This document shows, piece by piece, positions 18,600 through 38,672 of a stretch of 64,000 nucleotides of DNA. The stretch covers positions 1,612,001 to 1,676,000 of the forward strand of contig CM039002.1 of NCBI GenBank assembly GCA_017499595.2, given 5' to 3'. Each line of letters opens with the position of its first letter. The stretch's first letter is position 1. This DNA is from Psilocybe cubensis. Taxonomy: Eukaryota. The notes beneath the pieces were generated by a model. That model was not told the origin of the DNA and did no database searches. It worked only from the letters and a program-made list of their open reading frames with translations. Both the position numbers and the translations under genes were made by a program.

Positions 18600-18808
18600 A
18601 TTAAGAGCCAAGAAAGTGGCTTGCTAGTAGATTTATAGAGAGTATACACGGACGTCTATTACTTGGTTGATTATGGAAATGATCGAAACCCACAAACTGA
18701 AGCAATTGTGGCTGTGCCATAAATTGATCTCAGCCGCCTCCTAATGTTATCATCACAAACGTATGTACGACACACTGTCAACCGATTCAAGCGTCACATT
18801 CGTCCACC

Positions 18809-19363
18809 ATGCCATGGTCTGAAGCTATTATTGAACAGTTTGCAATTGTCGACTTTGATACTACTGAAGAAAGAGACTTTTATGGTCCATTCAACTCACT
18901 TCTGGTCGACATTTTCCCCAGCTCAGAACATTACCAAGTCTCCCCACAGCCCAAGCTCAACGACGGGACACTAGACCTCGCTGTTCAATTTATTGTATAT
19001 CACCGTGCCACTCCAATTTTTTTCCTAGATATCAAAGCATTTCGCTCCCTTACCCTGTCATCCACCCGTGCCAGTGCAGACGATCAAATGCGCCAGACAT
19101 TTCGCCACTTTTCTTCGGCGACAATCCCGTCAGCCACATTCTATGGTCTCAGTGCATTCGGTCCGCAGTTCTGTGTTTATTCGTTGGACACCGTTACTCG
19201 CAGTATCGATCCGCCAGGAGTTGCTCGCGATTTGACAATAGTCAACGACATAGCACCTGAGAATCGATGGGCATACAATTTATTCGAACCCTCTGGGGAG
19301 GCCAAATTGCGAGAGGTTGTGAATGCAGTTAAAGAAATGACAAAAAATTGTGATAACTCCTAA
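18809..19363 (+). CDS. Intronless 184-aa hypothetical protein, possible PD-(D/E)xK-like fold
   Basis: Clean ATG-to-TAA ORF with CCACCATG context; globular composition; D...FFLDIK motif; resembles a recurrent Agaricomycete hypothetical family (from recall, not searched). Confidence 0.7.
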   Translation: MPWSEAIIEQFAIVDFDTTEERDFYGPFNSLLVDIFPSSEHYQVSPQPKLNDGTLDLAVQFIVYHRATPIFFLDIKAFRSLTLSSTRASADDQMRQTFRHFSSATIPSATFYGLSAFGPQFCVYSLDTVTRSIDPPGVARDLTIVNDIAPENRWAYNLFEPSGEAKLREVVNAVKEMTKNCDNS

Positions 19364-19447: not shown

Positions 19448-22400
19448 TCAGGCGAGGAAATCTTTTTCTGTGATACTGCTATTGTCACAGAGAGCACGGA
19501 AAATCCCATCTGCGTTTTGAAACAAAGAAAGGGGGGTATCAAATTCCTTCAGATGTAAGTGGTCAGTGTGTCATGTGTTGCAGGCAGAGCGATGCCGATG
19601 CACTAACCACTATATTTCCGCTATCAAGAACCAAAATCCGGTCGTAGTTGAGAATTGTTCTTAGTCGATCTAAAGCAGGGTCGTGAATATAAAACATTCA
19701 CGATACGATAAACACTTACGGGCAATGCATATCAATGTCCTGTCTTTAAACTCTGTTTGAATAGTATGTTGGATCTTTTTGTCCGTTTCTAGATCGACTG
19801 ATGCACTGCAAGAAGTCAGATGAATTCAGAAAAAATATTGTTAAATAACGTACGTAGCTTCATCTAAAATAACGACTTTTGTTTCCCTGACAAGGGCACG
19901 AGCAAGGCTGAGAAGAGAACGTTGGCCAACACTGAGGTTTGATCCTTCTGATTCCAGCACGGTATCGAGACTGATTCGCCCTGTGGCTGTAGCGGACTCT
20001 TCGCTCTCTTCACCAGATGATCGAGTTTTGGTATCTTCCACTAGGAATGATCGACGAAGTGCATCCCATAAGTGGGCGTCATCATACAAGGAAAATGGGT
20101 CCAGTGCAGTTCTCACAGTGCCTGATGCATAAAGTGAGTAAAAATTGCTGTTGCAAGTCAGCCTCTTACCGCTGAATATTGTTGGCTGGTCATGAAATGA
20201 AATATTCTAAGAAATAGCTCTGGCTAAGATCGAGACGCGCTACTTACCTCTTGCGGAATTATTGCAATTTTGGTGCGCAGGTCTTTCAACCCAATCTTTG
20301 AAATGTCAACACTGAACCGTCCCATTATACTTTAACCATATTTTGGTATGACAGAGCTTAAACAACTGACCCATCGATAGTGATTTTGCCGACATATTCA
20401 ACAATGCGTAAAAGGGCCAAGGTTATGGACGATTTTCCAGCGCCAGTTCGTCCAACGATGCCAATTTTCTCACCTCCCCGAATTGACATGGATATTCCAT
20501 GAAGAACATTTGGAAGGCCAGGGCGATACTTCATAGAGAGGTCCTTAAACTCTATTGCACCTTTTTGTGGCCATTCGGCTGGAGGTTTGTTTTCAGGGAT
20601 CTCGTGGGGGGCTTCTTGCCTCATGACGTCGGTTTGACTGTAGTGGACGACTGCAGAAGGGCGTAAACTACTGATAAACGGGTTGAAATTGAGGCGTACT
20701 TCTCTCTACTGAATTTAGATAGTTCTATAGCCAGCATTAGCAACTAATATGCCATAAAACACGAATGACGTACTTCAACTTCCGCGGTTTGTCGGGTCAG
20801 CATCCCACAGGCTTGTGTGAGTGAAGCTGTAAAAGGTATTACGCTCAGCAATGTCGAGTGAGATGATATCAAAAGTACGCATACTTGTGTAAGTTAGAAT
20901 CAACCCCACCTGGGCCGCCGATGATCCCGATGCTCCAGTTACAGCAAATATAGCAACCTGAGCCATGCGATTCAGGACGAATTATATTCGTATTAAAATC
21001 AGGGAGACACACAAAAAAGACAAGCAAAGCTCCACAAAAGTCCAGACGTATGGAAAGCCACCTGACAAGGAAATAAGTTCGAACCAATATTGTGTTTCAA
21101 TTCAATGGTCCTCACCTTTGGTTGCTCACGGTTAGTATCAATGCGCGGTTCTCAAGGTCGATATAATACGCATTTTCCTTCAGAAAACGTGGAATCTCTC
21201 CGTATGTGCGCAAAGTTGATAGGCCTTCAAGTCCAAATAAACGTTAGGCAATACTATGATTCGGTAACGCATTGACTGTCACTGACCTGTCAACGATTCT
21301 GAGAAATGAGAGTATAGCAAAGATCGTAACATGGAATCTGTGCATTGCGTCTGGTCAACACTTCTACATAGTAGGGATAATACATAGATGATACCTAAAC
21401 GTTTCACTTCTCTTGCACTTGCACGATAGAAAGCAGCAAAATATTGGTAACCAAGCGATATCACAATTGCTGCAATGACTACAGAAAGGTCCAATCCCGT
21501 GAGATCGATTTCAATATTACGGTCGAAAAATAGCACTAACTGAAGTAATGTTCGACGACGGTGATGATAACCACAGATCCGAGAACATTGGAGACGGTCA
21601 AAGTAACTAGAAGCTGGGATGAGAATGACGTTTCATTTTGCAAGGTGTCAATGACGTACGCATTCGTAAAGACACTGAGCACACATCATTAGAAATGAAA
21701 TGTAATCAGAATAAATGAGTCTATACCTGGAAGTTGATTGTCGATGTCTGCAGAAGCTGTCAGTCAGCTTAGATCATGTAAAGCTTTTCCAGATGTACTG
21801 ACTATCAATATCTTTTCCAAAGACACCTATGATGCGTCCCATTGGCTATCACGTCAAACATGTAAGATTGAGCATGTATATGGTTCGAAGCTTCTTACAG
21901 TGGTATCGAAGAACGCCATGGGGGCATAAAAAATATTTGTTATCCCTTCATGGTGAAGATTTTGAGAAACAAAGTAGGAAAAAATATCAGTGCAGCAGCC
22001 CCTGCATTCAAATACGTTTCAATTCTTCAAAATAGCACCGAAGCCAAACTGCTTACGATAAAAACGTTGAGATAGCCTGCGAAATTCCCAGGATGGCATA
22101 CAGTGTTTGGTAGAAAGAAAATGCTCGGTGGAATGAACTAGGCAAAGTCGATTAGATCAATATTGACAGCTACAATTACAGGCCCACCAGAAAACTCACT
22201 TCGCTTGCCACCAGACCAGCGTGTAAGAACTGGTGAGTTGGCTACCTTGCATCATAAGGACGGACAAAACTAAGATAGGGGCAGTAAACCATCCTCGCCC
22301 TGCTACAAACCATGCCTTGTATACTGCCAGAGAGTGTTAGTCTGACGCCCAAGTTCAATGACACCAACTGGAAGCAATAAAGCATACCGGCTTTTGAAAT

Positions 22401-25400
22401 GGAGCCCGTAGAACGCTGTTCTTTCACAATGAGTTTCCCCTCCAGTTTACCGGTTCCAGCACCACGACGATTTGAAGAAGTTAATTGCTGCATAATATCT
22501 TCCTTATTCGCTTCGACCTTTTGTGTCTCTTGGTCTGAGGTTTGCTCCGTTTCATTTCCACCGAACTCCTTGTCAAGTCTAGCGAATTCGCCATTAGCTT
22601 GAATGAGTTCTTCGTATGTTCCTTTCTCGGCCACCCGGCCGTCGCGAAGCGTGTAGATATAGTCGCATTGGGACAGAAAATGCAAGGCATGGGTGACGAA
22701 AATCACAGTTTTCCCCTCATTGCGGAGAGCGCCAAGTATAGCATCATGGAACAGGGCCTTTCCAACATGGGCATCGACTGGTTGTACAATTTTTGAGTCA
22801 TTGTCCTTCAAAAAGAGAATCGTAGACTAACCTGCAGATAAAGGGTCATCCATTATTACGACATCTGCGTCGTAGTAAAGAGCCCTGGCGACATTAATCT
22901 ACAAAATCATAATAAGATATCAAGATAGAGACAATTGGCAAAACGCCAAACCCTTTGTTTTTGACCACCACTAAGGTTAACTCCCTTTTCACCGATCTGT
23001 TTGATTTGAAGATTTGAAAGATGTTAAACGTTAAAGTTGAACAAAGCACTTGCCTCTGTTAAGTCACCATCGGCCAGCAATTGTAGATCATGAAGAAGAG
23101 ATGCCTGTTCGATGACCTTCCAGTACCTTTCTTCGTTAAATGGCTGTCCGAAGATGATGTTATCTCGCTGAGTATCGTTAGCGAGGCTATTAGGCGGAAT
23201 GCACAAACCGGCTTACAACAGAAGCGTTTTGGATCCATGCAGTCTGTGGACAGTAGGCCACTCGTCCACCGAAAGCGACAGTGCCAGATACCTTCCTCAT
23301 CTCTCCGATGAGACCCAAAAGTAAACTAGATTTCCCTGAACCAACGCGGCCGACTACTGCCACCAGAGACCCGCGAGGTACGTGCATATCGATATCTTCG
23401 ACTCTAAAGGGTGTCAATGATTGGTGCGGTACTGCAGCATCTTGGTTTGAAAGAGATTCTTCCCATTCAAATGTGGCTTTTTCCACTCGGACTGCCCATT
23501 TCAATCCATGGTCCACAAACAAGCTGTCAAAATCCCGAGTTTCTGCATTGAAAACGCGACGAAGCCGAGAAATGGCACTTCGAGCGTCCGATGTAGCAGA
23601 AAGCGCTCTTGGAAGGAACATCATTGGCTGACGTAGAAGCTATTCGCCGATTGTCAACAAGATCCTACGGTGCGGATGTTCGATGAATACCTGGAATAAA
23701 CTAAGAGACGCAAAAATTATGGCAACGTCAAAGCCAGGTTTTACATGAGTATAGGTAACGAATGCAAGCGTAGCTGCGAGAACTGGGATAGAAAATGCAA
23801 ATGCCACGCTGTCGCAAGGTCTCAGACTGAGCGCAGGGTAGAAGGCAGATGTACACACTTTGCAGACTGAGAAACGAGGATATTTTTGACACCTCGAAGT
23901 TCATTTCTTCTAATTGTGTAAATGCCTGTAACATTATGAAAACACTAGTGCTTTCATCACAAAAGGTTGATACTCTTACGATTGAGGAAAGGCATCTCAT
24001 ATGAAAAGTATTTTACTACACGCATCGACCCTATTAATGATGCATCGTGAGTTACACACCTACGAAAGTCATCTCTGAATTATTGAGATCTTACCTAGCA
24101 CCTCAAGGAGGGTTTTAGCTCGCTGATCCGTGTATTTCATAGACCTCTTTCGAATTGAGAATTGCTGAGCCATGGCACGTTCTTGAAGAGGTGCAATTGC
24201 AAGGAAAAGACCAAAGCCAGCTAATGCTGAAGGCCCCAGCTATTGTGAAGTTAATTATCCTATAGCAAAACACAACTTGACGTGGCACCTACCTGAAACA
24301 GTAGGATTGTCAGACATACTGTGATTTGAATAGGTGCTGTCCAGGCTAAATACACGTAGTTAATAGCGAGAGCAAATTAAGACAGAGGGTGCTTACTGGC
24401 ATGCTGGTCATGGAGAAATAAGTTATATGATACTACGCAGCGACTAGGCAAAACGAATACTTACAAACCACTGTGCGCATGCGTCGATTCGACTGACCTA
24501 TTGCATATGGTTAATAAGTTCGATCTTTACATCTTGACCGCAGCAGTTGGGCGCTTACATCTGTTGAGATGTGATTTACGAGATCGGAGTTGGTTATCTG
24601 CGTTCTAGCCTTGCCAGTGAGAGTCACTCCTCGTTTATAGATAGATTTGATTAGGGCTGCACGGGCAAGCACGCCGGTCACCATCGAACGCCAAAAAAAC
24701 TGTATTTTTTATCAGAATATTTGCATAATGAGTATTCGAAGGAACACAAATGTACCTGATGTTGCCCTATACTGGCGGATATGGTGAGTAGGAAAAGGCC
24801 AATGGCCATTGCTATTCCGATTCCAACGTTAGGTTCTGGTAAGCCGTGTTCTCTTGCGGCCTCCCTCTTTTTCGCAAAATTGATGATGGCCTGGTATTTG
24901 ACTGTCAAAAATTAGTCCCGTCGACATAATCAACCATGGACTACCTTGATTACTATTGGGCCCATGAGTTGCGACGTGTCTCCAAAGACCTATTCAAGTA
25001 ATTTATCATTTTGAAAAACTTGTCAGGTATACGATGTGTGAAGACTTGCCTTGAACATCCCGCCTGTCCAGAAAAAAAGTCCTACGGTGTCATTGAGGGC
25101 AAGAGCTAAACTAGCAGTTTTCCTCCCGTCCACATCTCTCCATTTCTTTTCAAACTCTCTATATTTGTTCGTACAGTTTGTACCTGCAAAAATAGACCGA
25201 GAAACCCAAACAGAACGTCGAACAGGACCTGGGCCGATTATACCTCTGTCTAAATTGTCATTCCAGGCATCTGCTTCAGCTTTTCTTCGCGCCCAAGACT
25301 CATCAAGCTTTTTTGACAATGTCTCAGACGAATGAGATTCACCCAACTTCCACAAGTCGGTTGCTTGCAGAGTTCTTTGGTATCCAAGGGTCTAAATTGA

Positions 25401-25869
25401 AAAATTGTAAGGAAATAATTTGAGTTGGACAGTAAGTGGCGAAATAACCATCAATGGCGTAACCCAGGCGAACGTAAGGATGGACGGAATTGAAGCAGTA
25501 TAGAGTGGAATATCCTAAGATCCTGTTAGTTCTGCACCGTCATATAATCATGAAACTTGTACAGGTGCGTTTGATAATGAGCTCCGGGGCGGCGGCGGCA
25601 TTCCATTAGGAATCCTAGAAAGTGTTGTTAGTTGTTTAATGTGATGTAATATTTCTATGAGTAGCATACCATATTTTCCACCAACTCGTTCTGGATCTAA
25701 TTTGCACTTCGCCAAAATCAAGGTCGATCTTCACCTCGTCAGACGTATTTTGTTGTTGCTGGCCTTTTTCGTGGTGTAGAGAGGATTTTTCACTGACGGT
25801 GGTGGATTGAGAAGGTTCGCCTTTCTCGTCACCTAACCGGCCTTCGAAATTGCCGTTTCCTGAAGCCAT
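19448..25869 (-). CDS. Full-length ABCC/MRP (YOR1-like) ABC transporter, more than 25 exons
   Basis: NBD1 GRVGSGKSS, AYCPQTAWIQN, DLTE|IGEKGVNLSGGQKQR, MDDPLSA|VDAHVG; NBD2 GRTGAGKSS, NLSVGQRSLLSLARAL, LDEATASVD; two TM domains; N-terminal GYQRTLQATDLW. Confidence 0.93.
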
Positions 25870-27528
25870 TTCTAAGAAGCGACAACAGGTTTGGCCATGC
25901 AATGACCTCAGTTATATGGACCCGGGGAATACGGGACAGGGGGATTTCCCCTTGGACGGCCGAAAGGAACAAATTTCCAACATGACAGCATTCCTGGATA
26001 TTTCTGGCCCAGATATGCATAATTGTAAGATCGTGCGAGCCTTGAGCTCAAAATTAGAAAAAGTCGAACTAAAAGCAGAGCAGATAACACCTACCATGCA
26101 ATGCCGACCATACACAAATCTAAAATCAGAGACGGCTTTTCGGCTAAGCGGAAGGGTATCCGGTTTTGCTAATTGATACGGACATCCACTGGCATGTTGC
26201 ATCTGGCCCCGCAAGAGTAGCCAGAAGACCGTTGTCCTCGAATTTGACTAAAGATAATCATTACATCCTCTATAGCGCATTGTGGAGAGGGATTTCTGAC
26301 TGAAAGGAAGGGAAGTGTAGAGTTGAGTATGACCGCAAGCAGGGGTTTTGCGTGGATTAGAATTAATAGAAACGAAAGGAGAGCATCATGGAGTCAGGGT
26401 CAATGGCACCATATATACATACCTACGTCATGTCTCGTGATCTTCGTGGTCGCGCGACACGCATCGCGTCACAGGGACTCGAACTTGGTCTTCAATTCAC
26501 TATTAATTATTCGAGTTGATACATGAGTCTGCCATCTCGAATTGATTACTATTAGACATAACACTCTTCCACCTCGAGCTCAATAAAGGTTGTAACCATA
26601 ACAACGAGTCGGTGTCGAATGTGTCGAGACAGTCAGATGCCACTTTACGTTAGTATGGCCAAAACGCACCGTATCTCTTAAGCCCGTTCTGTTGATGAAA
26701 AAAAGGGCTACTCAATCGTAACGCCGGAATTGTGAGAGTCATATATGAAAGAACTGATTCGGCCATCCATGGATAGGAATGTAGCCGAAGCATACTGCAA
26801 TGATATCTTTCAAAAGGGAATTAAATTATTGGGCGATTGCGGAATATATGATTCGATGCCACGAGAATGTTACCAGGTCGCGTCAGGTCGCGTAATGTAG
26901 AACTACAACCTTTGCAAAAAACAAAAAAAAAACTATTGTTCCCAAGCGTCCTGAACCTGAAGAGACGACTCAATGCGACCTTTCGGTATTCTGCATACTC
27001 ATGCCCTCACTGATTCGACGTGTGAGTGATGTGCCTCTGTAGCGCAATATGTAGTTTTTCAGTCGGATGAAAACAGTACTCAGCACTTGGGTGACTGGAA
27101 CGAGATAAAGGGTTGGATGAGTCCCACTCGTGGTCATTGGTGATGCAAGGGATGATCATGGCACTGGCAGCGAGGCCGGCAAGTCCCCTTTGGTTGTTGA
27201 ACAATCAACGATTGTTCATCTACCTCAGTGTTAATTCTCACTCTGATGATGTCCCACACATCAGTCGCTAAAGGCAATCAAATCGACCAGACCCCAACCT
27301 GAAGCCCTCAGGCCAGCTCAGGCCTCAAGCCTCATGAGCTAAGTAACGACATGAGCGCGGGACGACGGAACGGGACTCTATTTTTGACTGCGACTTTGTC
27401 TGATGATTGGCAATGCTCGTCAACATTCTGAATTGGATGAAAGCTTGAAGGTATAGACTATAGAGGGGATAGACGGAAGAGATTGGTAAATCAGGAGCCG
27501 ACATAGTATCTGAGTGAGAGCTACAGAG

Positions 27529-27537
27529 ATCTGATAA
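27529..27537 (+). promoter_or_regulatory. ATCTGATAA: SreA/Sre1/Urbs1-type iron-repressor GATA motif
   Basis: Exact match to the ATCWGATAA consensus, ~50 nt upstream of the first NIS synthetase ATG. Confidence 0.55.
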
Positions 27538-27585
27538 AGGTTCGATACTTGATCACTCTTTGATCTTTCCTGTCCTGAACTCTCA

Positions 27586-29773
27586 ATGACCAAAAGTCCT
27601 ATACCTCAAGATCGCGCCCAATTCGCGACTACTGCCCGTCTTTTATCATGCCTTGTGACGGAATCTCTCACTCCAGCCTTTTATATACCTCAAAGAAATC
27701 CTACACATGGAGGATTTGCTGTCATTTTGAAAGGCGGACGCTCTTTCAATAAATCATTGGCCGCCAATGATATTCTTGCTCTCGTTCCTCTTCACCACCC
27801 CCCAATCATAAATCCAGAAACAAAAACTGATGTGGCTGCAGCTGAGATCGGCTTACTCGACCCTCTGGATATGATGCCCATGGTTTTCGAAACAGAAGAA
27901 TTCCCCCCAGAGGAACCTCAGCAGGACAGGTGCCTCTCCAATCCAGTAAGAGTCTTCGATGCCATGCGTGATTATTTCTGATATGTTTCAGTGCATCGCA
28001 ATTATGTCTTCTCTTTTGGAGATGCTTAAGTATGTCTGCGCTATTCATCTCGAAGAATACCAGATACGTCTATCGTCAGATGCCCTGTCTATCTGGAACA
28101 AGTTCGCAATTAGCCAAAATCTCGATCGTGAAATCCAAATGGATATTGCTCAAGAACTATCGAGTTCTGTTAAATGGCAAGGTATGCTGGTTGATATTTC
28201 ACTCACTGACAAGAAGTTCTAACTATCTTTTGTTTTTAAGCTCATTCGTACGAGAATCCTCCAAATGCCCCTTCGTTTTTGTCTCCTAGCATTCAGTGGG
28301 AACAATCCATCGTCGAAGGCCATCCTACTCACCCTGTGAATGCAGTTTTGAAAATTTCCTAGATATATTGCTGAATAATCATTTGTCAAGATGCACAAGA
28401 CACGTCGATTTCTACCTCCACTAAAAGACTATTCCCCCGGCTCATACGATCTACTCCATCCAAGATTACGCTTCGTATCGATACCCCGCGAAAATTTAAA
28501 AGTTACGTACGATTTCGAAGGACTGACTCTTCCGGTTCTCAAACTTGCATCCCAACGAGCCGGAAAGGATTTGTCCGTTGAGGAACATTGTATTGCTATC
28601 CCGGTACATGAACTTCAAATCGCGCATATTCGAGATAAATTTCCAGAAGCGTACATCTACCCTGAAGAGTTTAGCCTTCCTTTGTTGGCCCAACAAAGCT
28701 TGAGGTATACCATCGGTTGCCAATAGTCTTCCAGATGAACTGATTATTGAGCTAGATCTGTTATCGTACCTGATGCATATCGTGGGCTGCATCTCAAACT
28801 GGGAGTGGGAGTCAAGCTCACTTCTGCAGTTCGAACCATTTCACCCGAATCAGCATATCTGGGGCCTCGTTTTTCTGCCCAAGTTGTTCCCAAATTGACA
28901 ATGGATCGAAATATCGTCACGGTAGCAAGAGAATTGGCCAGTGTGGTGCATGCGCATCCTAACGGGGAGATAGCAAAGCACTGCGCTGCCATCGTCAGAG
29001 AGTGCCACGAGGACACAAGCGATACTCGAGGGGAACGGTTAATCGTCTGCACTTCCCTAGTGGAAAGTGGTCATGCTGGAAAGGACGGTCATCTTCCCTC
29101 CGTGGTCCGCGTGTTTGGATTAGATACAGAAGAAAAGTGTGCTCAGTGGTTCGAGAAGTGAATTTCCTTCTTTGTGGCCTGGCGATTTTGTTGACGCATC
29201 ATGTGCAGATTCGCCGCACTCTTCCTTCAAGCTTTCTTGCCTCCAATGCTTCACAATGGGGTGGCTTTCGAATGCCATCCACAGAATTGTGTTGCCAGGT
29301 TTGACCTCGAAACCAAAGAATTAAAAGGTTTCATTGTTCGCGACTTTGGTGGTCTTCGTGTGCACCCCGAGACGCTCAAGGCAACTGCAGGAGTAGAAAT
29401 TGATTTCATGGCAGGCCACTCAATTATCGCGTCAACTTTGGATGGTGTGTATACGAGAATGTATCACACGATAATTCACAATCATTTCCAGCAACTCATT
29501 CGCGTTCTCGGACTTCACTACAGTGGTCGCGGTTGGGCCATTGTTCGCGAACAATTAAAGATCCAGATACCTCCAGACCACCCGCTATACGAATCGTGGC
29601 TCTCACCAGAAAGAAGGACACTCCCAGGGAAATGCTTTATGCGAATGAGAATGTCCTCCATGTACCGTTTCGTGAGTTCTTTCTAAATCTTTTTATCTGC
29701 TTTTGTTAAAATTGGCCTTTAGCATCTCCACGGGCCATTCCCGAATCTTATTCACTATACGGGCTCAACCTAA
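27586..29773 (+). CDS. IucA/IucC family NRPS-independent siderophore synthetase (copy 1), multi-exon
   Basis: FATTARLLSCLVTE, WEQSIVEGHPTHP|MHKTR, PVHELQ, AQQSLR|SV, LKLGVGVKLTSAVRTIS, GVAFECHPQN, RDFGGLRVH, LPGKCFMRMRM. Confidence 0.92.
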
Positions 29774-29928
29774 ACCGAGAAACCGCCGTACGGTCAGGAA
29801 AGAAGAAGTGCTTACTCATGTATTATATTTCTGTGATCATAAACTCGGAGCTGGGAAATATACAGAACAACTGTGCATAAGGCAAACATAGAAGCTTCGC
29901 GGAGTTCGAATTGCATTGGCCATGAACG

Positions 29929-29946
29929 CTCATGAACGTTCATGAG
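29929..29946. repeat. Perfect 18-bp palindrome CTCATGAACGTTCATGAG within a CATGAACG tandem
   Basis: Read directly from the sequence; the reverse complement is identical. Confidence 0.8.
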
Positions 29947-30553
29947 TTTACACCCACAGTTAACCGTGCTCCTTCTCTTTCAGCATTTACACCAGTTTCA
30001 ACAGTCCCCATTCTCGAGTCTAGGAATGCAAATAGGATCTCACAGGTGTTGGAAGTGAATCCTCCAATGTGCATGCCGAATTTCCAATACAATGTCATTG
30101 AACCAATGGAATGAAATTTACACAGATGTGTGATTTTTGCGTGGGTACCATCCAGCCTGAAGTATATGGGGCTTGTCATACTGAGATTCGGAGAACAGAA
30201 TCCCCAAAATGATCATCGACATCGATTGGACCCAGGTCGCTGCCCATTGTAACTTGATGCTTGATGCAGATGTCCCGCTGCTTAGTACTTGTCACTAAAC
30301 CGCAGCGGCTCCGGGGACATCCCCCCTTTGAAGTTTGTATCGACATATTGTGTACTCTCCTTCAGCACTTCAGGCAATACCTACCTTATGATTTGGTCAA
30401 GTTCTTACACTTTGCAATGCATGGCGCCTTTCGGGTTTTGTCTGGTTTTGTGCACTACCGTAGGCACCGTGGAACTCTCCAACACGTTTCGTTACAAGCC
30501 GAGGCTCGGCTTGTGAACATCACGTTTAGTCATGAGAGATGTCTACATCTTCT

Positions 30554-30564
30554 TTATCAGATAA
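30554..30564. promoter_or_regulatory. TTATCAGATAA palindromic double-GATA site (ATCWGATAA on both strands)
   Basis: Inverted TTATC-W-GATAA ~520 nt upstream of the second NIS synthetase ATG. Confidence 0.6.
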
Positions 30565-31083
30565 CGACAATCTCGCCTTACTCATGCCCGTCCCAAAGAC
30601 GTGCTCGCATCTAGTCTGCCATTTTCGAATTTTGCCCGCGCAGGCCAATATATATATATTACAGTGATTTACTGAATAAAAGGGACACTCCATTTCTGCT
30701 GTGCCTAACCCCCTAATCAGCAAAAATTTCAAAAACTTCACAAACAGACTTCCAAAGTGAGTTTTTTGAACCTTGTTACTCCAAATTTAATCCCAAGACA
30801 AATTGCTTTAACGTCGAACTATCTAGATCAATAACTGTGCCAAAATACCAGAGAGTCCCCCGTCGATTCCACAGTGGTCTTCATCTTGGAGAGATCGCCA
30901 TCGGTGTATCCGTACAATTGAATTCCAATTGGTATGCACCTGTTCTTCATTCGCGCCAGATAAACTTTGAACGGGCCGCGACTCCAGTAGCTGCGAAACA
31001 ATCGCACATAACTTTCAAAACACCAAAGCTCGACGACATAAATTTCTCAAATCCAATAAACTCCTTCGTCAATCATCCCTCAG

Positions 31084-33345
31084 ATGTCTTCAGAACCTCC
31101 TCGCGATCGCGCGTCGTTTGCGGTAATGTCGCGCCTTATATCATGCCTTGTCACGGAACAAATTCTTCGGGCCTTTTACGTGCCAATGAAGAAACCTACC
31201 CATGAGGTTGCTGGCCTCCTTGTTGTACTTTCTACGCACACTATCTCGGAGGACTTCAAAGTCTCTCGCACGTTCCACACCCGCGACATTTTTGTCATTG
31301 TGCAGCTGAACCATAAACCAGTGCTCAAGGATGTTCAAATACACAGAGGTAGTCAGCTTGTTGGCCTCGTGGACCCGATGGATATGATTTCACCCATCTA
31401 TGAGTTCCAAGATGATCGGAATGTAAATGATAATGTATGTTTCATCTCTTCTGGACATACTATGTTCACAGCGCCTCATGATATGTTCAGGATATTTTTG
31501 TCGAATCTGTTCTGGAAAGCCTTAGTTCTCCTCCTTGGGATATAGAGACATGCGGGTCCTTATATCTGGTTTCCGATCCCGTAGCTCTGTGGAAGAAATT
31601 CGTAGAAACTGTCATCATAGCAGACGAGCTCCGAGACATTATCGCCCTTGAACTCCAGAGTTCACTTGATTGGCAAAGTTAGTGCATTACCAACGTATTT
31701 GCTTACTGTATCTGATGTCTGGGACAGCAATATCATACGAAAATCCTCCCTTGTGTCCAAGTCTACAATCAGCTTCTATTGATTGGGAACAAAGTCTAGT
31801 TGCTGGACATCCAACACACCCGGTATAGTCGCTTTTGTCACTTCAAACTTATTTGAGCATGCACTAAAATCTTGCGAAAAGATGCATAGGGCAAGAATGT
31901 TTCTTAACAATGACGAATCGTCCTTGGAATACGATTGGTATCATCCCCACGTTCGATTTGTCCGAGTACCGGCTCGAAGCCTAGACGTCCTTGGTCAATT
32001 TCGAGACATAAGCAACGCAATGGTCACAAAGGCTGCCACCAAAGCTGGAAGATCAATATTGATCGACAACGACTATATTTATATGCCCGTCCATGAGTTG
32101 CAGATTATCAATATCACTTCGAAGTTTAAAGATGTTGATGTTCTTGACGAAGACATCTTCCTTCCTGCTCTTGCTCAATCAAGCATCAGGCGAGTCAATC
32201 AGCTGGCTCAATGATGTCACAGAAACTCACATAGACCAACAGGACTGTGGTGATACCTGATTTTCCCGCTATTGCCCTCAAGCTGGCAGTAGGAGTCAAG
32301 ATATCATCTTCACTGCGTACAATCTCTCACTTTACCGCCAACTTCGGGCCTCGATTTTCCGAGGAGATTGTTCCGAAATTAGCTGTAAACCCAGCCATTC
32401 TGGCAGTGGAGCTTGAATCGAGCAGCGCAGTTTATCGCTGTGATGATCCGGAACTTTCCAAACATTTCACAGCAGTCATCAGGGATGAATATAAACCAAG
32501 GGAAGGCGAAACGGTTATAGTATGTGCGGCCTTATTGGAAGCCGGCCACGCCAACGTGCCTACCGGTATCTCTGCCGTTCAACATACATTTCAACTCGAC
32601 ACGGAAGAAAAAAGGGCATCGTTTTTAGATAGGTGGGCATGTTTTTGACCATTCAGAATCTCTAAAAATTGACTAAAGAGACAGATACATCCGGATTGCC
32701 TGCGAAGCCTTGTTACCTGCTCTCGTCAAAAACGGTGTCGCCTTTGAAGCCCACGCGCAAAATATTCTTGCTCGGTTTGATCTTGAAACCGGACAACTAC
32801 AAGGCTTCATTTTTCGAGACCTGGGAGGCCTGCGCATTCACCCCGAAACACTTCGCAATTCCACTGGTGTTGACTTCCAGTTTCTTCCCGGGCATTGCGT
32901 CGCAACTAAGTCTCTCGAAGAGATATATCCTAAATTTTATCATACCTTCGTGCACAACCACATTCAGCGGTTGTCGAGATTGCTTGGTCTTCACCACAAT
33001 GGGCGGGGATACGAGATGCTCAGGAAACACATGGGCTCAGTTATCCCTGAGAACCACCCAGTTTGGAAAGTATGGATGGATCCAACAAGCACTACCGTTG
33101 ACTCCAAATGTTTAATGCGGATGCGGATGCGTGATTCGTATCGAGATGTGAGATTTCAAAGTAACGTTTCTATGAACAAATTTCACTGAGCTTTATGATA
33201 GATGGTTTACAGCCCGTATCCCAACATGATCCAATACCGACCCACGCCAGAAGTGTCTACAGCGGACAAAAGCTACTGGTCAATCACCAAGCTGTTGGTG
33301 GATTATATGTCTTTTATTCGAGCCAGCCTCTTTGGCGGCAAGTAA
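31084..33345 (+). CDS. IucA/IucC family NRPS-independent siderophore synthetase (copy 2), multi-exon
   Basis: FAVMSRLISCLVTE, WEQSLVAGHPTHP|MHRAR, PVHELQ, AQSSIR|TV, LKLAVGVKISSSLRTIS, GVAFEAHAQN, RDLGGLRIH, KCLMRMRM; intron positions match copy 1. Confidence 0.92.
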
Positions 33346-33647
33346 TTAAAGCATTCACCTATATCTTTTGCAAATGTATATCCCACTACTGTTGTAGACT
33401 TTATAACTATTTCAAAACGTATATCCAATGACACTTGGTGTTGTATAACTTGCAAGTTGTGGTCAAATTGCTGACTGTGAGAGAGTTCATGTCACTGTGA
33501 AATAACGTGAGAAGAAGTATGTACATGAACGATTGACCGCATCCAACACAGGTCTGTTGTCATAATGATTCGACATTTCTCTGCGGTCTCCACAGGGGTA
33601 ACAAGGGTGCCCACACAGCTTTAGTGGTAATTTCGCTGCTTCCACCC

Positions 33648-33749: not shown

Positions 33750-35697
33750 ATGAACAAAACCAAATCCCCGATCGATTTGAACGATAAAATCAACAAAGAA
33801 GACGAAATCGGCACACTTATCGTCGTTCTTCTTAAAGCTAGGAATCTCAACGACAAGCATTCGTTCCGGAAATCTGATGTCTTTGCGCAAGCAACTCTAA
33901 ATGGTGCATTTCCATTCTCCATAAGCTCATCGTCGCTTTATATCTGATCATATCGACATTTTCATGTTTTTCTATGTTAAGGCATTCAGAAACGTACTCA
34001 TGTGGACATCAAGGGCGGTCAGCGCCCTGAGTGGGATGGGGAAGTCAGATTTACAATTGTAAAGCATAAAGCAGAAAAGTATAGGAAGCTGGAAGTGGCC
34101 TGCTATTCTCAAGAGCCACGATCGGAGGATCTTATGGGACAAGGGTTTGTCGATATCTCAGAGACGCTACGAACAGGCGAATTCGACGGCGAGTTCATTG
34201 TTCTTTTATGTTATCATTCTGCGCCGATACTAACTGCAGAGGAATTTGATAGACTGGGTGCCTCTAGAAGTTGATGGAGTCCAACGAGGAGAGTTGTATC
34301 TGGAGATGACCTATTATGCAAACAAGGCAGCTCCGACGGGACCTCCGGTGCCCAACAAACAACTTGCTGCTGTGCAGGCTCAAAACAATCTTACTAGACG
34401 TCCCTCAAAATTGTCACCTGCGGATCGACTATCACGTCCACAGCAGACAGCAGCGGCGGTGCAATACGCCCAAGTACACTCTGTACCTGGGCCAACTTCG
34501 GGTGCTCCTTCCTCCCGACCTCATCAACAACACTACCCATCTCAAGCCATCAATAACCAAGGCTTCAACCCCCAAGCAAATGCACTGCCTACAAGCCTTG
34601 TACCGACACATCCTGCAAGTACCGGATCATCACCCAAGGGCAAGCAAGATGCCCTGCCCTCCCCCTTTCCCGAGCATAGAAGGGCTGAAAGCCTAGGTAT
34701 CACTCAGCAGCCCCAAAGTGCTGTGCCTTTGCCGACTATTCTCCGTCCGGGAGCGAATGGCAGCACAACTCCACCATCAGCGTCGGGAGGTCCTCGTCCT
34801 ATTGGTCAAGGACACGTTCGTCACCATTCACAAGGGCAAGGTGAATCGTCCGCTCCTAATGCATATATCCCCGGGACCAGCGCCACTTCGCAGAATCCTT
34901 ACATCGGAGGTGCTACCACACCTCCAAGAAATCATGGCAACACATACGTAGGAGGGAATACAACTTCTGGGTCTACCAATCCATATGTTGCGAAGAATGG
35001 CTCTCCTCCCAGCAGCCATGCTAATCCTTATGTGGGTAGCAATATTCTACCCAGCTCAGGCTTGGGACCGGGTCGGGCACAATCTGTTTTAGGATACGGA
35101 TCACCTCCTCCCAGTGGCCCTCCGCTTCTCTGGCAGCAAAGTACTTCATGCCAGTCCGATGGATCGTTCTCGTTCCCAATGCCCATGATCGTACCACCTT
35201 CACAGGAGCAAATTCCTCATCAGTCGTTCTCCACATTTAGTGAGCATAACGGGGACCATACTGGTGGTAGGGCAGGGCAGCATTATCATCATCGACCTAC
35301 CCATCGAGTTTCGTCGTCTCGCGAGGAACAATTTGACCCGTATCTACAAGCGAGGTATCAGTCTCCGTTGCCATTGCCTCCTGGGGTATCTGCTTCCTCA
35401 TCCTCTATCGCGCCAACTCGGCCAGCACCCCCTACTCCAGCACCCACAACCACTGCGCCAGCACCAGCACCATCAACCCGGGTACCTACGCCTCCACCAA
35501 AGACTGACGTTACTCCCGGACCAGATAAACGGCGACTTGAGGCACTACGCAGGGCTGAGGAAGAGGCAGCACGACGGCGAGAACAGGAACTGAAAGACTT
35601 GGAGCTCGCCATGCAATTGGACCGAGAATTGAATTTAACAGAAGAAAGGGCGAGTGGCGCTAATGGCGACCCGCCAATTCCTGGAAGGTGGCAATAA
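33750..35697 (+). CDS. N-terminal C2-domain protein with Pro-rich tail (Fic1/Inn1-like cytokinesis protein), 3 exons
   Basis: IGTLIVVLLKARNL, DIKGGQRPEWDGEVRF, GEFD|DWVPL...RGELYLEMTYY; long PxxP-rich disordered tail; C-terminal UIM-like DLELAMQL. Confidence 0.8.
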
Positions 35698-36188
35698 CAA
35701 TCTAATTCATCTATACCACGGTGCTAGAACTGGAAAACAGGAGGGATTGTTTATCTGTGATTTAATGTTATTTTTAAAGACCCATTTAGTGGAGTTATGA
35801 TATACAAGTAACATATTTATACAGATGTATTTTTTATTTTTATTTTTTTTTATTTTGTGTTATAGCCTCTGAGGGGGGGGGGGCCTCCCTTGGCTTAGTA
35901 CAGTTTTTCTACCTAATACGCCCCTTTGCGTTTTCCCTCATCGATCCTCCTCTGCGCCATGGAGGGCCCTCACGTCCCTCCTCAAGGCCCAGCCTATCCA
36001 GACTGTTTGAGGTGGCATCTCCGGATACAGATGTATTAGATGTAATAACGCAGTGTAGTCCACATACAAACTACTAAAGCAAATCAGTACAGAAAGCGAG
36101 AAAGCAACGCTAATAAAAATCCCGTTGTGGTGATGGATGTACAATTGGTAGATACATGCAGAAAATAAGTGTGTAGGTTTCGAACATC

Positions 36189-37216
36189 TCAAATAACTTG
36201 GGCCATTTGGTTGTCATTTTGTATGTTAGTTCGGCTGGGGTGTGCAAGTGCCTTCAATTCTCCTTTTTCGACGTTTTTGGACAGACGGAGATCGTAGAAG
36301 AAAGTAAGGAGATAAAACGTGAACCCGAATGCAATGATCCATTCTAATACCGCTGAATACGGATTTCAGTAGACGGAAATGACAATTTTTAATAAGAAAA
36401 TACCTCCAGCGTCGGGGGCATGAAATAGCGTTATACCAAATGCGATAGCGAGGATAATTAGAGTGATGGCTATGATTGCTTTAGCGAAGTATGCGATCCG
36501 GAGCCTTGATTGGTCCACAAAGTCTTTGCTGACCCATCGGTACTGTATTGAATAAAATTACGTTAATTTACGGAATGGGGTAGAGGAACCTTGAAAATTA
36601 TAAGCGCATACCTCCATAATGGAGAAGATGGCGCTTAACGCAACGCCAACAATAAAGACCAAAAGGAATACACGATGGGCCCTCGAAAAGCGCTTGGTAT
36701 CGAATATGGAAAGAAACAGGAGCCCCACGGCGCCAATGAGCGAGCCTATAATGGCAAGTATGCTGAACACGCGCTCGCGTCTGCGCATATTGGGCATCAA
36801 TCTGGAGAAAAGACGCAGTCCGCATTAGTCAATTTCGACCGGGAATGCTTGTGTGGCGCACAGGAGTCCCTGTCGGCTGCAGTTTGACGCCATCACGACA
36901 GCGAAGCCCTTGTGCGGGACCGAACTTGAGCTTGCTTTGCTTACCTCCCTGTGTGCCGCAATAGGCGCCCAGTCACGAGTGTCAAGAAAAAACCGACGCC
37001 TGTAATCGCGCATCCGGTTATGAAGAGGGGCTTGAGCTTGTCCGCACCGACGTCTGAGATGTACGCGATCGAGCCCTCCTGTGAGACGTACTTGGGGCGC
37101 CCCGACGCGAGCCACACGATGAGCATCGCGAGCAGCGTGGAGAACCACATGGCGGCGGCGGCGACGGGGATCCAGACATAGGCCCAGTGTTGGTAGCGCA
37201 GTGGTATGTGTGTCAT
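36189..37216 (-). CDS. Frag1/DRAM/Sfk1 family membrane protein, multi-exon
   Basis: IAYISDVGADKLKPLFI, LSIFDTKRFSRAH, VLEWIIAFGFTFYLLTFFYDL; about 6 TM segments. Confidence 0.88.
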
Positions 37217-38672
37217 AAAGGTCACTTTTTGTGAGGGGCTGGTGGATGGGCTACCCTGACTAAAGCACCCCTAGCGATCGAGAGATATTTCGTTCGCGTC
37301 CGTGATGTCATGGTTTCTCACGACAATTGTGGGTGCTACTTACAGCATTCATGCATCATGGTACTCTCTACACCATTGATTATAATTAAACACGATTACC
37401 TACGAAACTCTATAATGACTATTGGGGCTGACCTAAATACAACACTCTATGCCGCCTGCCGATGAACACTATGAATACTCTGGGTCGCATATCATCCATC
37501 ATCAAAAGCACAGGGCAGGAGCACGGTAAGGCATTTATGTAAGATATGGGCATACGATTGTTCCACCAGAACACCGAACGTTCGCAAACAGTATAGGCTG
37601 TAGGACTAATGTTCCTGTCGAATCGTAGTCCTGAAGACACTCAACGTCAATCTAAGAACCCCCTTTCCACTATGACATACAGAACTCTTCACGGTAAGGC
37701 TAATTGTTGATATATTTGCTTCATCTTATCCGGTGGATACTTTTTCCTGAGAAAAAGTGCCAGGAACACCTTCGCGACATCGATGCGTTTCTCCCACATA
37801 CGCATGAGGCATAAATGCTAGATTACAAAATGGCTCGACCGGGAGCCCCGGGAGCGCATCCATTCCCAAAAGGCATTAGAAACGGTAAAAAGGGAGTTAT
37901 TTACGAAAAGAATCATGTGTAATGTAGAAAACAATTGCAGGATGGTATCGAGATCCAGAGCAAAAAAATGTTCTGAATGAAAATGCTGGCATGAGGGAGT
38001 CATCAAGTGACCTTAGTCATATAGGGTTTTTTATATTAATAAGATTTTATGTCTGAAAAACAGTCCTAATTTAGTAAGAAGTTGACACAATCGTATCACT
38101 GGACTTGCCTTATAAAATTAACAAAGCTTATGTATCATCGCGTCACAAACGGACAAATCGGAGTTTCGGGTTTTGGAACAAAAACTTCTAAGGAAAAATT
38201 AACCAAATAAGTACAGAGCTTGATGAGATTACCCGCCTAAAAAATGACCAGTGCTTACCGAAGGGGGTCATACAAGTGCGGCAAAGCATGTCAGCGAGTT
38301 GTAAGCAGGGAAAACCTAAGAGCGGTAAACCCGAGTACAGGTGGTGGAGTTTGATGGTCAAATGGCATTGTAGCGAATTCAAAGCAAGCAAGTGGAGGAT
38401 AGTAGCATAGCAAGGAAAGGCTTTGCAACTAACGGCTAAAGAATTACAAGCACTGAGCAGCTGAGAGAAAACATAGAAGAGGAAAAAGAGGATATACAGC
38501 CTACAAGAAAAGAGGAAAACATAAGAAGAGAAAGAGGAGATGACGCAGATGATCAAGAGGGGTAAAATGGATAACGAGACGAAGAAAGAAAGTAATAAGT
38601 TGATGCAATCCAAACAAAAGTCACTTAAGCTTCGTAACTAGAATAGAGGGGCCATGTAGGGAGGTGGTCGAA

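Follow-up and report, generated by a model that had tools for sequence, protein, structure and literature searches.

A tandem pair of siderophore synthetase genes in Psilocybe cubensis, with a conserved SreA/Urbs1-type GATA element upstream of the second

We describe here a locus of Psilocybe cubensis that encodes two synthetases of the NRPS-independent siderophore (NIS) family (NRPS, non-ribosomal peptide synthetase), and consider what the pair may make and how it may be controlled. The window is the whole 64,000-nucleotide (nt) stretch analysed (contig CM039002.1, here C5, positions 1,612,001–1,676,000), from a genome of 46.6 Mb in 21 contigs. NIS1 (27586–29773; 624 residues, orthologue group A) and NIS2 (31084–33345; 645 residues, group B) lie in tandem on the forward strand with seven exons each, and the 1,310-nt spacer between them (29774–31083) holds the NIS2 promoter and a spliced 5' leader. 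On the reverse strand, a gene for a 1,421-residue ATP-binding cassette (ABC) transporter of the multidrug resistance-associated protein (MRP) type (19448–25869; a short MRP, here ABCC) stands head-to-head with NIS1 across a 1,716-nt spacer (25870–27585). A first-pass annotation had recognised two complete, diverged synthetases in tandem and a full MRP-type transporter divergent from them across about 1.7 kb, and the intact gene models bear out both descriptions. Identity between the two synthetases is 41% across 633 columns, their six introns lie at matching positions, and they account for the only two matches to PF04183 in the genome. In the window, 227 reading frames (17 + 137 + 73) were scanned with Pfam, a scan that exons shorter than 75 codons may escape, and contained no monooxygenase, acyltransferase, decarboxylase, racemase, methyltransferase or cytochrome P450, in agreement with the annotation, which had seen no N-monooxygenase, acyltransferase or decarboxylase nearby.

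The synthetase models were built by three-frame reading. The exons of NIS1 are 27586–27945, 27992–28181, 28241–28335, 28391–28704, 28756–29157, 29209–29671 and 29723–29773, and the product is identical throughout to the deposited P. cubensis protein P0004; those of NIS2 are 31084–31434, 31491–31677, 31728–31822, 31882–32189, 32243–32632, 32685–33147 and 33202–33345, and the product is 99% identical to deposited P0121. Intron 4 of NIS2 (32190–32242) is of the GC-AG class. The P0121 model uses other NIS2 splice sites and has a four-residue insertion in a conserved SxRT motif; a contig piece from run X1 that begins at 32240 agrees with the GC-AG model. The deposited transporter, P0215, aligns to the window as 39 exon blocks; 1,410 of its 1,421 residues match exactly, and the remaining 11 lie where blocks meet. 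Contigs of runs X1 and X2, which come from one study and, as no run matching the locus is recorded as RNA, are taken as such solely from their intron-skipping joints, skip six ABC introns, three of NIS1 and one of NIS2 at canonical ends (among the joints displayed; there are 39 further), and transcripts of all three genes are therefore spliced. Contigs of runs X3 and X4 skip none of those introns. Much of the ABC–NIS1 spacer lies without X1/X2 contig cover, and we draw no inference from this gap.

Homologues of the two enzymes fall into two orthologue groups. In a midpoint-rooted FastTree phylogeny of 88 rows with Shimodaira-Hasegawa-like support, built without typed bacterial enzymes, A and B are sister clades (support 100), and each contains Phallomycetidae, Russulales and Agaricales. 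Support for A is 99, and that for B is 85 with Hysterangium and 100 without it; the sister group of A and B together comprises Calocera and Mucoromycota enzymes resembling the rhizoferrin synthetase Rfs (support 96), with Rfs itself outside the tree. This topology indicates that the pair arose by one duplication predating the split of Phallomycetidae, Russulales and Agaricales, and it would then have been retained since an early stage of the Agaricomycetes. Transfer from bacteria into this lineage is unsupported, given the six shared introns and the fungal sister groups, and the position of the A/B split inside a fungal clade argues against orthology to the bacterial enzymes SfaB and SfaD. Mean column identity is 53% within A and 46% within B, and both groups are about 41–42% identical to homologues from Umbelopsis and Phycomyces.

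Among the matches listed, A and B are both present in 59 of 117 named species, and in 50 of these 59 they lie on contigs of equal size. A further 30 species are listed with A only and 28 with B only, although these listings are not evidence of loss because a Laccaria-like locus has an unlisted adjacent B and the B of Arthromyces sat in a longer model. Consecutive A/B locus tags occur in Agrocybe pediades, Leucoagaricus, Termitomyces, Hohenbuehelia and Coprinopsis cinerea (CC1G_07067 and CC1G_07068), and the 117 named species include no Polyporales, Boletales, Hymenochaetales or Gloeophyllales with A or B. The locus type is already catalogued in print as an antiSMASH 'NI-siderophore' cluster. 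A side-by-side pair of IucA/IucC + FhuF genes is reported for Hypholoma and Coprinopsis (PMC8874372), a two-core cluster family for all 21 Termitomyces species (PMC11455885), and expression of Agaricales cluster genes for Stropharia mycelium (PMC8874372 / PMC11455885). We found no characterised product of a mushroom NIS pair in a literature search outside which most subscription journals lay; to this extent the first-pass annotation, which knew of none, stands, but the pair and its neighbourhood were already on record (PMC8874372, PMC10700112, PMC11455885). The available excerpts of the accounts of the Agaricales pair (PMC8874372, PMC11455885) give neither a product nor a deep phylogeny, and they compare no active sites and describe no promoter motif; those of PMC10282164, PMC12617850 and PMC13136457 contain nothing on this locus. 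The age of the pair, its fixed active-site differences and its conserved iron box are additions not met in the published accounts as excerpted.

Several records depart from the common arrangement. Five Russula-like metagenome loci (L035, L055, L071, L076, L080) have A without an adjacent B, with a fungal transcription factor upstream in L055, L076 and L080, and a 2-oxoglutarate (2OG)-Fe(II) dioxygenase, possibly a tailoring enzyme, downstream in L035, L071 and L080. Rfs-related NIS homologues are also on record for a lycophyte, Selaginella moellendorffii, and the ascomycete Orbilia brochopaga has a fused double-NIS protein that resembles bacterial fused forms (P0352 and P0463). Two records labelled Ceratobasidium sp. 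AG-I (P0039 and P0117) are 63% and 54% identical to the window proteins, as close as Agaricales orthologues, and the label may be wrong.

NIS synthetases activate citrate with ATP to form citryl adenylate and then transfer the citryl group to an amine. Both window proteins contain the PF04183 (IucA_IucC) and PF06276 (FhuF) domains above curated cut-offs, and their AlphaFold models (predicted local distance difference test scores of 92.9 for NIS1 and 89.0 for NIS2) match AsbB, SbnC, AcsD, IucA and DesD with Foldseek E values from 1e-18 to 1e-23, so that both are predicted to fold as NIS synthetases. In NCBIfam, FslA is the only match of NIS1 and the best match of NIS2, far below its cut-off. 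Positions of AcsD were mapped onto these proteins by profile alignment, the roles of H170, H444, R305, E442, R501 and K563 being taken from published work (PMC3323832; bioRxiv 10.1101/2025.11.03.685623). The catalytic His/Arg/His, the ExHxQN and RD motifs and the citrate-contacting Lys are all in NIS1 and NIS2, and among full-length proteins chosen from the 214 matches listed (64 of A and 66 of B), equivalents of H170, R305, E442, H444, Q446, N447, D464 and K563 occur in 64 of 64 A and in 65–66 of 66 B. With all catalytic residues kept, both enzymes look active. We considered, and reject, the idea that one paralogue is a dead pseudoenzyme, since catalytic residues are retained in both groups.

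The two groups are nonetheless distinct, with 14 positions that are at least 90% fixed within each and yet differ between them. The acceptor-site position of AcsD R501 is Arg in 60 of 64 A (R537 of NIS1) and Lys in 64 of 66 B (K527 of NIS2, or K531 as numbered in P0121), whereas five homologues from Mucoromycota have Leu, Ala or Phe there. In AcsD this residue recognises the acceptor carboxylate (PMC3323832; bioRxiv 10.1101/2025.11.03.685623), and the R501K substitution lowers activity with L-serine 14-fold while activity with diamines is retained (PMC3323832). The C-terminal lid is mostly YRFHLH in A, YRDMVY in B and YRDYIY in most outgroups, and the group B lid appears nearer the ancestral state because of this resemblance. 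Pocket equivalents of K563 and R576 are kept in the NIS pair; the Y504 position is His and that of N565 is Phe or Leu, matching the Mucoromycota homologues, and an HNH motif is common to A and B and absent from the Mucoromycota enzymes.

These observations suggest two principal models of how the work is divided. In the first, NIS1 and NIS2 would both be active, Rfs-related citrate-amine ligases, each joining an activated citrate to an amine, and would together build a single polycarboxylate siderophore, dicitryl and hexadentate, of the class that includes rhizoferrin and staphyloferrin A. NIS2, with Lys at the R501 position and the ancestral lid, would acylate an unhindered terminal amine, and NIS1, with Arg and a derived lid, would acylate an amine beside a carboxylate or one on a mono-citryl intermediate. 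We favour an unsymmetrical backbone, for example ornithine or lysine, because the enzymes differ at the acceptor-site residue and the lid; citrate and amine would be supplied by unlinked primary metabolism. We rank this two-step route to a shared unsymmetrical product above any other single reading, although we put it slightly short of an even chance. A second model, which has a substantial but smaller claim, proposes two enzymes with two products, NIS2 alone acting as an iron-repressed equivalent of Rfs that makes rhizoferrin (dicitryl-putrescine) or a homologue, and NIS1 being neofunctionalised to another citrate amide under other control. The retention by B of the lid of the Mucoromycota single-copy enzymes (YRD..Y), changed in A, favours this model, but A and B both differ from the Mucoromycota enzymes at the R501 site and share the HNH motif, and A is at least as conserved as B by mean column identity. 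In the two-product model the genes would stay together mainly as tandem duplicates in a slowly rearranging region, consistent with housekeeping neighbours that are as syntenic as the pair itself, and one Rfs is indeed enough for rhizoferrin (PMC7857480).

The regulatory sequences bear on both models. ATCWGATAA is the consensus for the GATA repressor SreA, and sites of Ustilago Urbs1 comply with it (PMC2610380); our search found no mushroom study of this motif, as judged by titles. Within the 64 kb the motif is confined to two sites, one upstream of NIS1 and one upstream of NIS2. A single box at 27529–27537 (forward strand) starts 57 nt upstream of the NIS1 ATG, and a perfect palindromic SreA/Urbs1-type box, TTATCAGATAA, lies at 30554–30564, about 520 nt upstream of the NIS2 ATG and about 80 nt ahead of a CCAAT and a TATA-like run (30645–30659, forward strand) that probably form the NIS2 core promoter. 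Elsewhere in the genome, the divergent FET3/FTR1 promoter has four boxes, the promoter shared by an NRPS and the ornithine monooxygenase SidA has four, among them the palindrome also found before NIS2 (0.03 expected with the consensus relaxed to ATCNGATAA), and that of a siderophore-iron transporter has two palindromes. The palindromic 11-mer occurs 72 times genome-wide, as compared with 18 for a reversed control. However, of eight palindrome sites annotated, six have no recognisable iron gene nearby and one is within a GATA-factor gene, so the palindrome alone is no proof of iron control, and conservation is the stronger test.

A metagenome scan provided 78 loci (from the best 80 of 156), of which 27 have A followed by B; together with the window, the spacers of these 27 collapse to 13 non-redundant groups. 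In nine of the 13, TTATCWGATAA lies 398–573 nt upstream of the first aligned base of B, compared with a background of five in 127 kb, or about 0.01 expected per 250 nt. The flanks of the conserved box are mostly unalignable, with partial similarity between two Leucocoprinus-like groups. The single box before NIS1 has a counterpart at a similar position in only one of ten other ABC–NIS1 spacers examined. The presence of a conserved box before B, and rarely before A, in Agaricineae-like loci speaks for the two-product model, but Russula-like loci have a box before A in six of 11 examined (partly redundant), tying A to iron. A SreA-type element has also been noted in the rfs promoter of Mucor (PMC7857480, PMC10700112, PMC9226013).

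We suggest that under iron-replete conditions a SreA/Urbs1-type GATA repressor would occupy the palindrome before NIS2 and would be released when iron is short, and it is probable that an iron-repressed citrate-amide siderophore comes from this locus. The first-pass annotation had proposed a polycarboxylate metallophore, and support for this class is provided by the Rfs-like sister group, the intact active sites, the lack of hydroxamate genes nearby in the scans and the box before NIS2. A citrate amide or ester with a role other than carrying iron (serving another metal, as an intracellular buffer, or as precursor of a modified metabolite) is improbable in our estimation: iron uptake in this genome is already served by NRPS and reductive systems, the literature found reports no detected product, and Russula-like A genes stand beside a dioxygenase and a transcription factor, but an iron-regulon box has been conserved before B across spacers that are otherwise unalignable.

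Two putative introns in the 5' untranslated region (UTR) of NIS2 (about 30757–30826 and 30932–30987, forward strand), suggested by an X2 contig and splice signals, flank an exon of about 105 nt. Spliced contigs also span much of 29774–31083, including 30199–30756, where the GATA palindrome and ten upstream ATGs lie. Possible explanations are read-through (a dicistronic transcript), overlapping UTRs or a long leader isoform, and dicistronic transcripts have been reported in mushrooms (PMC4503453). A true NIS1–NIS2 fusion protein, as modelled in Psilocybe cyanescens, Panaeolus cyanescens and Amanita phalloides, is rejected because the linkers are unrelated; in two of the fused models the final exon of NIS1 is missing, and the P. 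cyanescens linker matches in part that exon, read in a different frame, and 3' sequence containing a stop.

The closest published counterpart was described by Narh Mensah et al. (2023, PMC10700112) in Armillaria and other Physalacriaceae as 'NIS Cluster 1', in which ABC, NIS, C2 and Frag/DRAM/Sfk1 genes lie together as they do here. The NIS of that cluster is typed A', the published tree groups it with Rfs, and its product is given as unknown; a similar region is described for Agaricus bisporus. The Armillaria cluster differs in having a single NIS, which belongs to our group B, together with duplicated ABC genes, an S-adenosylmethionine methyltransferase and a P450, whereas the P. cubensis locus has two NIS genes and neither of the latter two by Pfam scan.

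Several observations weigh against a shared, iron-repressed two-enzyme pathway. The Armillaria cluster has a single NIS, no Armillaria A is among the matches listed, and type B therefore seems useful alone, a situation that the two-product model accommodates readily. A and B are on differing contigs in nine of the 59 two-type species (among the matches listed) and on different scaffolds in Stropharia (PMC8874372), and A–B linkage is thus not obligatory. Of five fused double-NIS proteins examined, four carry Lys at the R501 position in each half, which weakens the use of Arg versus Lys as a marker of first and second steps; a genome scan for such fusions returned two loci (one uncultured Burkholderiales assembly). 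The palindrome is absent from four of the 13 spacers, which are Lyophyllaceae-like and Amylostereum-like by best match, and a box precedes A in just two of 11 ABC–A spacers of Agaricales-like loci, so co-regulation of A is not established. Armillaria NIS proteins were undetected in the proteome with iron present or absent (PMC12973365), and Armillaria chrome azurol S (CAS) activity was not clearly iron-repressed (PMC10700112), which tempers the claim of regulation for Armillaria. No racemase or tailoring enzyme is linked in the window, and the phylogeny was inferred by FastTree only, with Rfs, SfaB, SfaD and FslA not in it. The two steps proposed in the first-pass annotation are therefore plausible, in view of the ancient paralogues, the acceptor-site differences and the published argument for two enzymes given below (PMC7857480), but the proposal goes no further than this, with the single NIS2-type enzyme of Armillaria to be reckoned with.

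Comparison with characterised systems places the locus among those of the Rfs and staphyloferrin A class. Rfs of Rhizopus delemar and Mucor lusitanicus has the same domain layout as NIS1 and NIS2 (PMC7857480, PMC10700112, PMC9226013), but it is a single enzyme that performs both condensations on putrescine, whereas P. cubensis has a pair of paralogues whose acceptor-position residue is Arg or Lys. Li et al. (PMC7857480) argue that one NIS is enough for rhizoferrin and that two are necessary for the unsymmetrical staphyloferrin A and corynebactin. We consider it quite unlikely that the pair splits the synthesis of plain rhizoferrin, one paralogue forming N-citrylputrescine and the other adding the second citrate; the closest characterised relative does make rhizoferrin (published tree, PMC10700112), the genome has an ornithine decarboxylase gene and no tailoring gene is linked, but there is no clear reason for two genes where one enzyme suffices, and lineages listed with one type would be left unexplained. 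The staphyloferrin A (SfaB/SfaD) and corynebactin (CiuE) systems resemble the two-step model in having two NIS components that place two citrates on one unsymmetrical amino-acid backbone (PMC7857480, PMC10700112). They are bacterial, however, and the fungal pair arose from its own duplication, so they are analogues at most. Staphyloferrin A also needs a racemase (PMC7857480), and none is linked in the P. cubensis window; the locus thus belongs to the NIS family, but falls outside the staphyloferrin A pathway. In its fullest form the two-step model would describe an iron-repressed two-enzyme pathway, maintained since the early Agaricomycetes, that makes an undescribed unsymmetrical dicitryl siderophore such as dicitryl-L-ornithine or -lysine, that arose by duplication of an Rfs rather than by transfer, and that converges on staphyloferrin A and corynebactin; taken as a whole, this combination is tentative and rather less likely than the two-step sharing considered by itself.

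The role of the transporter is a separate question. ABCC is a full transporter with two transmembrane and two nucleotide-binding domains in alternation (PF00664 and PF00005) and is of the MRP type; its best NCBIfam match is TIGR00957 (E 1e-291, 970.8 bits, below the cut-off of 1470). The deposited name, 'Multidrug resistance protein fer6', follows Fer6 of Ustilago maydis, an MRP-type transporter encoded beside siderophore genes, although Fer6 lies in an NRPS (ferrichrome A) cluster, is iron co-regulated and is functionally uncharacterised (PMC5561558), whereas here there is no iron box at the ABCC start. As to synteny, which the first-pass annotation had proposed to examine, eight named genomes have ABC and NIS locus tags no more than two numbers apart, one Arthromyces model joins ABC and NIS, and of the 36 metagenome loci that extend 1.5 kb or more upstream, 20 have ABC head-to-head (16 of the 20 being Leucocoprinus-like and largely redundant). 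However, NuBaID, DEAD helicase, C2, Frag1 and DSBA genes are as syntenic in these loci as ABCC, and the ABC–NIS linkage is therefore ordinary microsynteny.

Export of the product through ABCC, as the first-pass annotation proposed, is possible and is the weakest step of the mechanism; we found no support for it beyond adjacency. The chances are evenly balanced that ABCC has no dedicated NIS role, being a bystander or else an exporter that is general or serves the hydroxamate siderophore, a probability not to be added to those of the pathway models. In addition to the equal synteny of housekeeping genes, nine of 11 ABC–A spacers have no box, 16 of the 36 metagenome loci have no ABC upstream, ABCC homologues 57–64% identical occur in Polyporales, Boletales, Hymenochaetales and Gloeophyllales, the orders without a listed A or B, and a scan of 81 of the 154 frames in roughly 40 kb surrounding the NRPS/SidA pair showed no transporter. 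Against this stand the adjacent locus tags, the head-to-head loci, the ABC genes flanking the Armillaria cluster (PMC10700112) and the iron-co-regulated namesake (PMC5561558). An MDR-type ABCB gene elsewhere in the genome (L117:2604–8100, contig C3 at about 316–322 kb) has a palindrome about 690 nt upstream and is a rival candidate for siderophore export. The closest ABCC paralogue (L011–L012, C5 at about 2,120.8–2,126.6 kb; segments about 50% identical) has no iron box upstream. In Arthromyces matolae (consecutive models P0038/P0334), A is fused with ABCC in the same direction, so that the ABCC orientation differs from that in the window, and the next model contains B and extra sequence.

The characterised siderophores of mushrooms, basidioferrin and coprinoferrin, are NRPS-made hydroxamates (PMC8874372, PMC11455885). 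Our analysis suggests a second, citrate-based iron system beside these in a large part of the Agaricomycetes, among them fungi that decay litter, form ectomycorrhizas, are cultivated as mushrooms or are farmed by insects. If the two-step model is correct, a symmetric one-enzyme pathway would have become an unsymmetric two-enzyme pathway, and if the product is an unsymmetrical dicitryl compound, a second, non-hydroxamate siderophore would be present across much of the Agaricales and Russulales. The question of the product is now directly testable, with two intact enzymes, diagnostic residues, adjacent orthologues in Coprinopsis cinerea, and an 11-nt element that predicts iron limitation as the condition for finding it.

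The ornithine monooxygenase is on a different contig, head-to-head with the NRPS siderophore synthetase that it adjoins (L007–L008, C3 at about 3,073–3,083 kb). The single ornithine decarboxylase match is about 1.45 Mb from the NIS locus, and one weak match to the racemase-type domain PF01168 is more than 1 Mb away. The siderophore-iron transporter (major facilitator superfamily; L111:2382–4479, C1 at about 905–907.5 kb), with its palindromes about 350–390 nt upstream, is a candidate uptake route. The GATA-factor gene has its palindrome just past the zinc-finger exon (L110:4350, C7 at about 3,157.8 kb), and its product could be an autoregulated SreA/Urbs1 homologue. In the metagenome loci a second GATA palindrome often lies shortly past the end of the A gene (L021:6077, L028:1991, L029:3784, L051:1232 and L062:710).

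The neighbours by Pfam are trehalose-phosphate synthase, ribosomal P0, amino-acid permease, NuBaID and DEAD helicase genes on one side, and C2, Frag1, DSBA, kinase, 6PF2K and Sir2 genes on the other; no Rfam match occurs in 25800–33500. The C2-domain protein gene (33750–35697, forward strand) and the Frag1/DRAM/Sfk1 gene (36230–37270, reverse strand), both with approximate ends, are the syntenic neighbours also present in the Armillaria cluster. Between the DEAD helicase and ABCC genes is a single-exon open reading frame of about 200 codons (18761–19363, forward strand) that belongs to an unnamed basidiomycete family, has weak structural likeness to HSDR_N restriction-nuclease domains, and was not seen in the Leucocoprinus-like syntenic loci. 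Finally, we note loose ends in both DNA runs at 35950–35995, marking a polymorphic insertion or repeat site.

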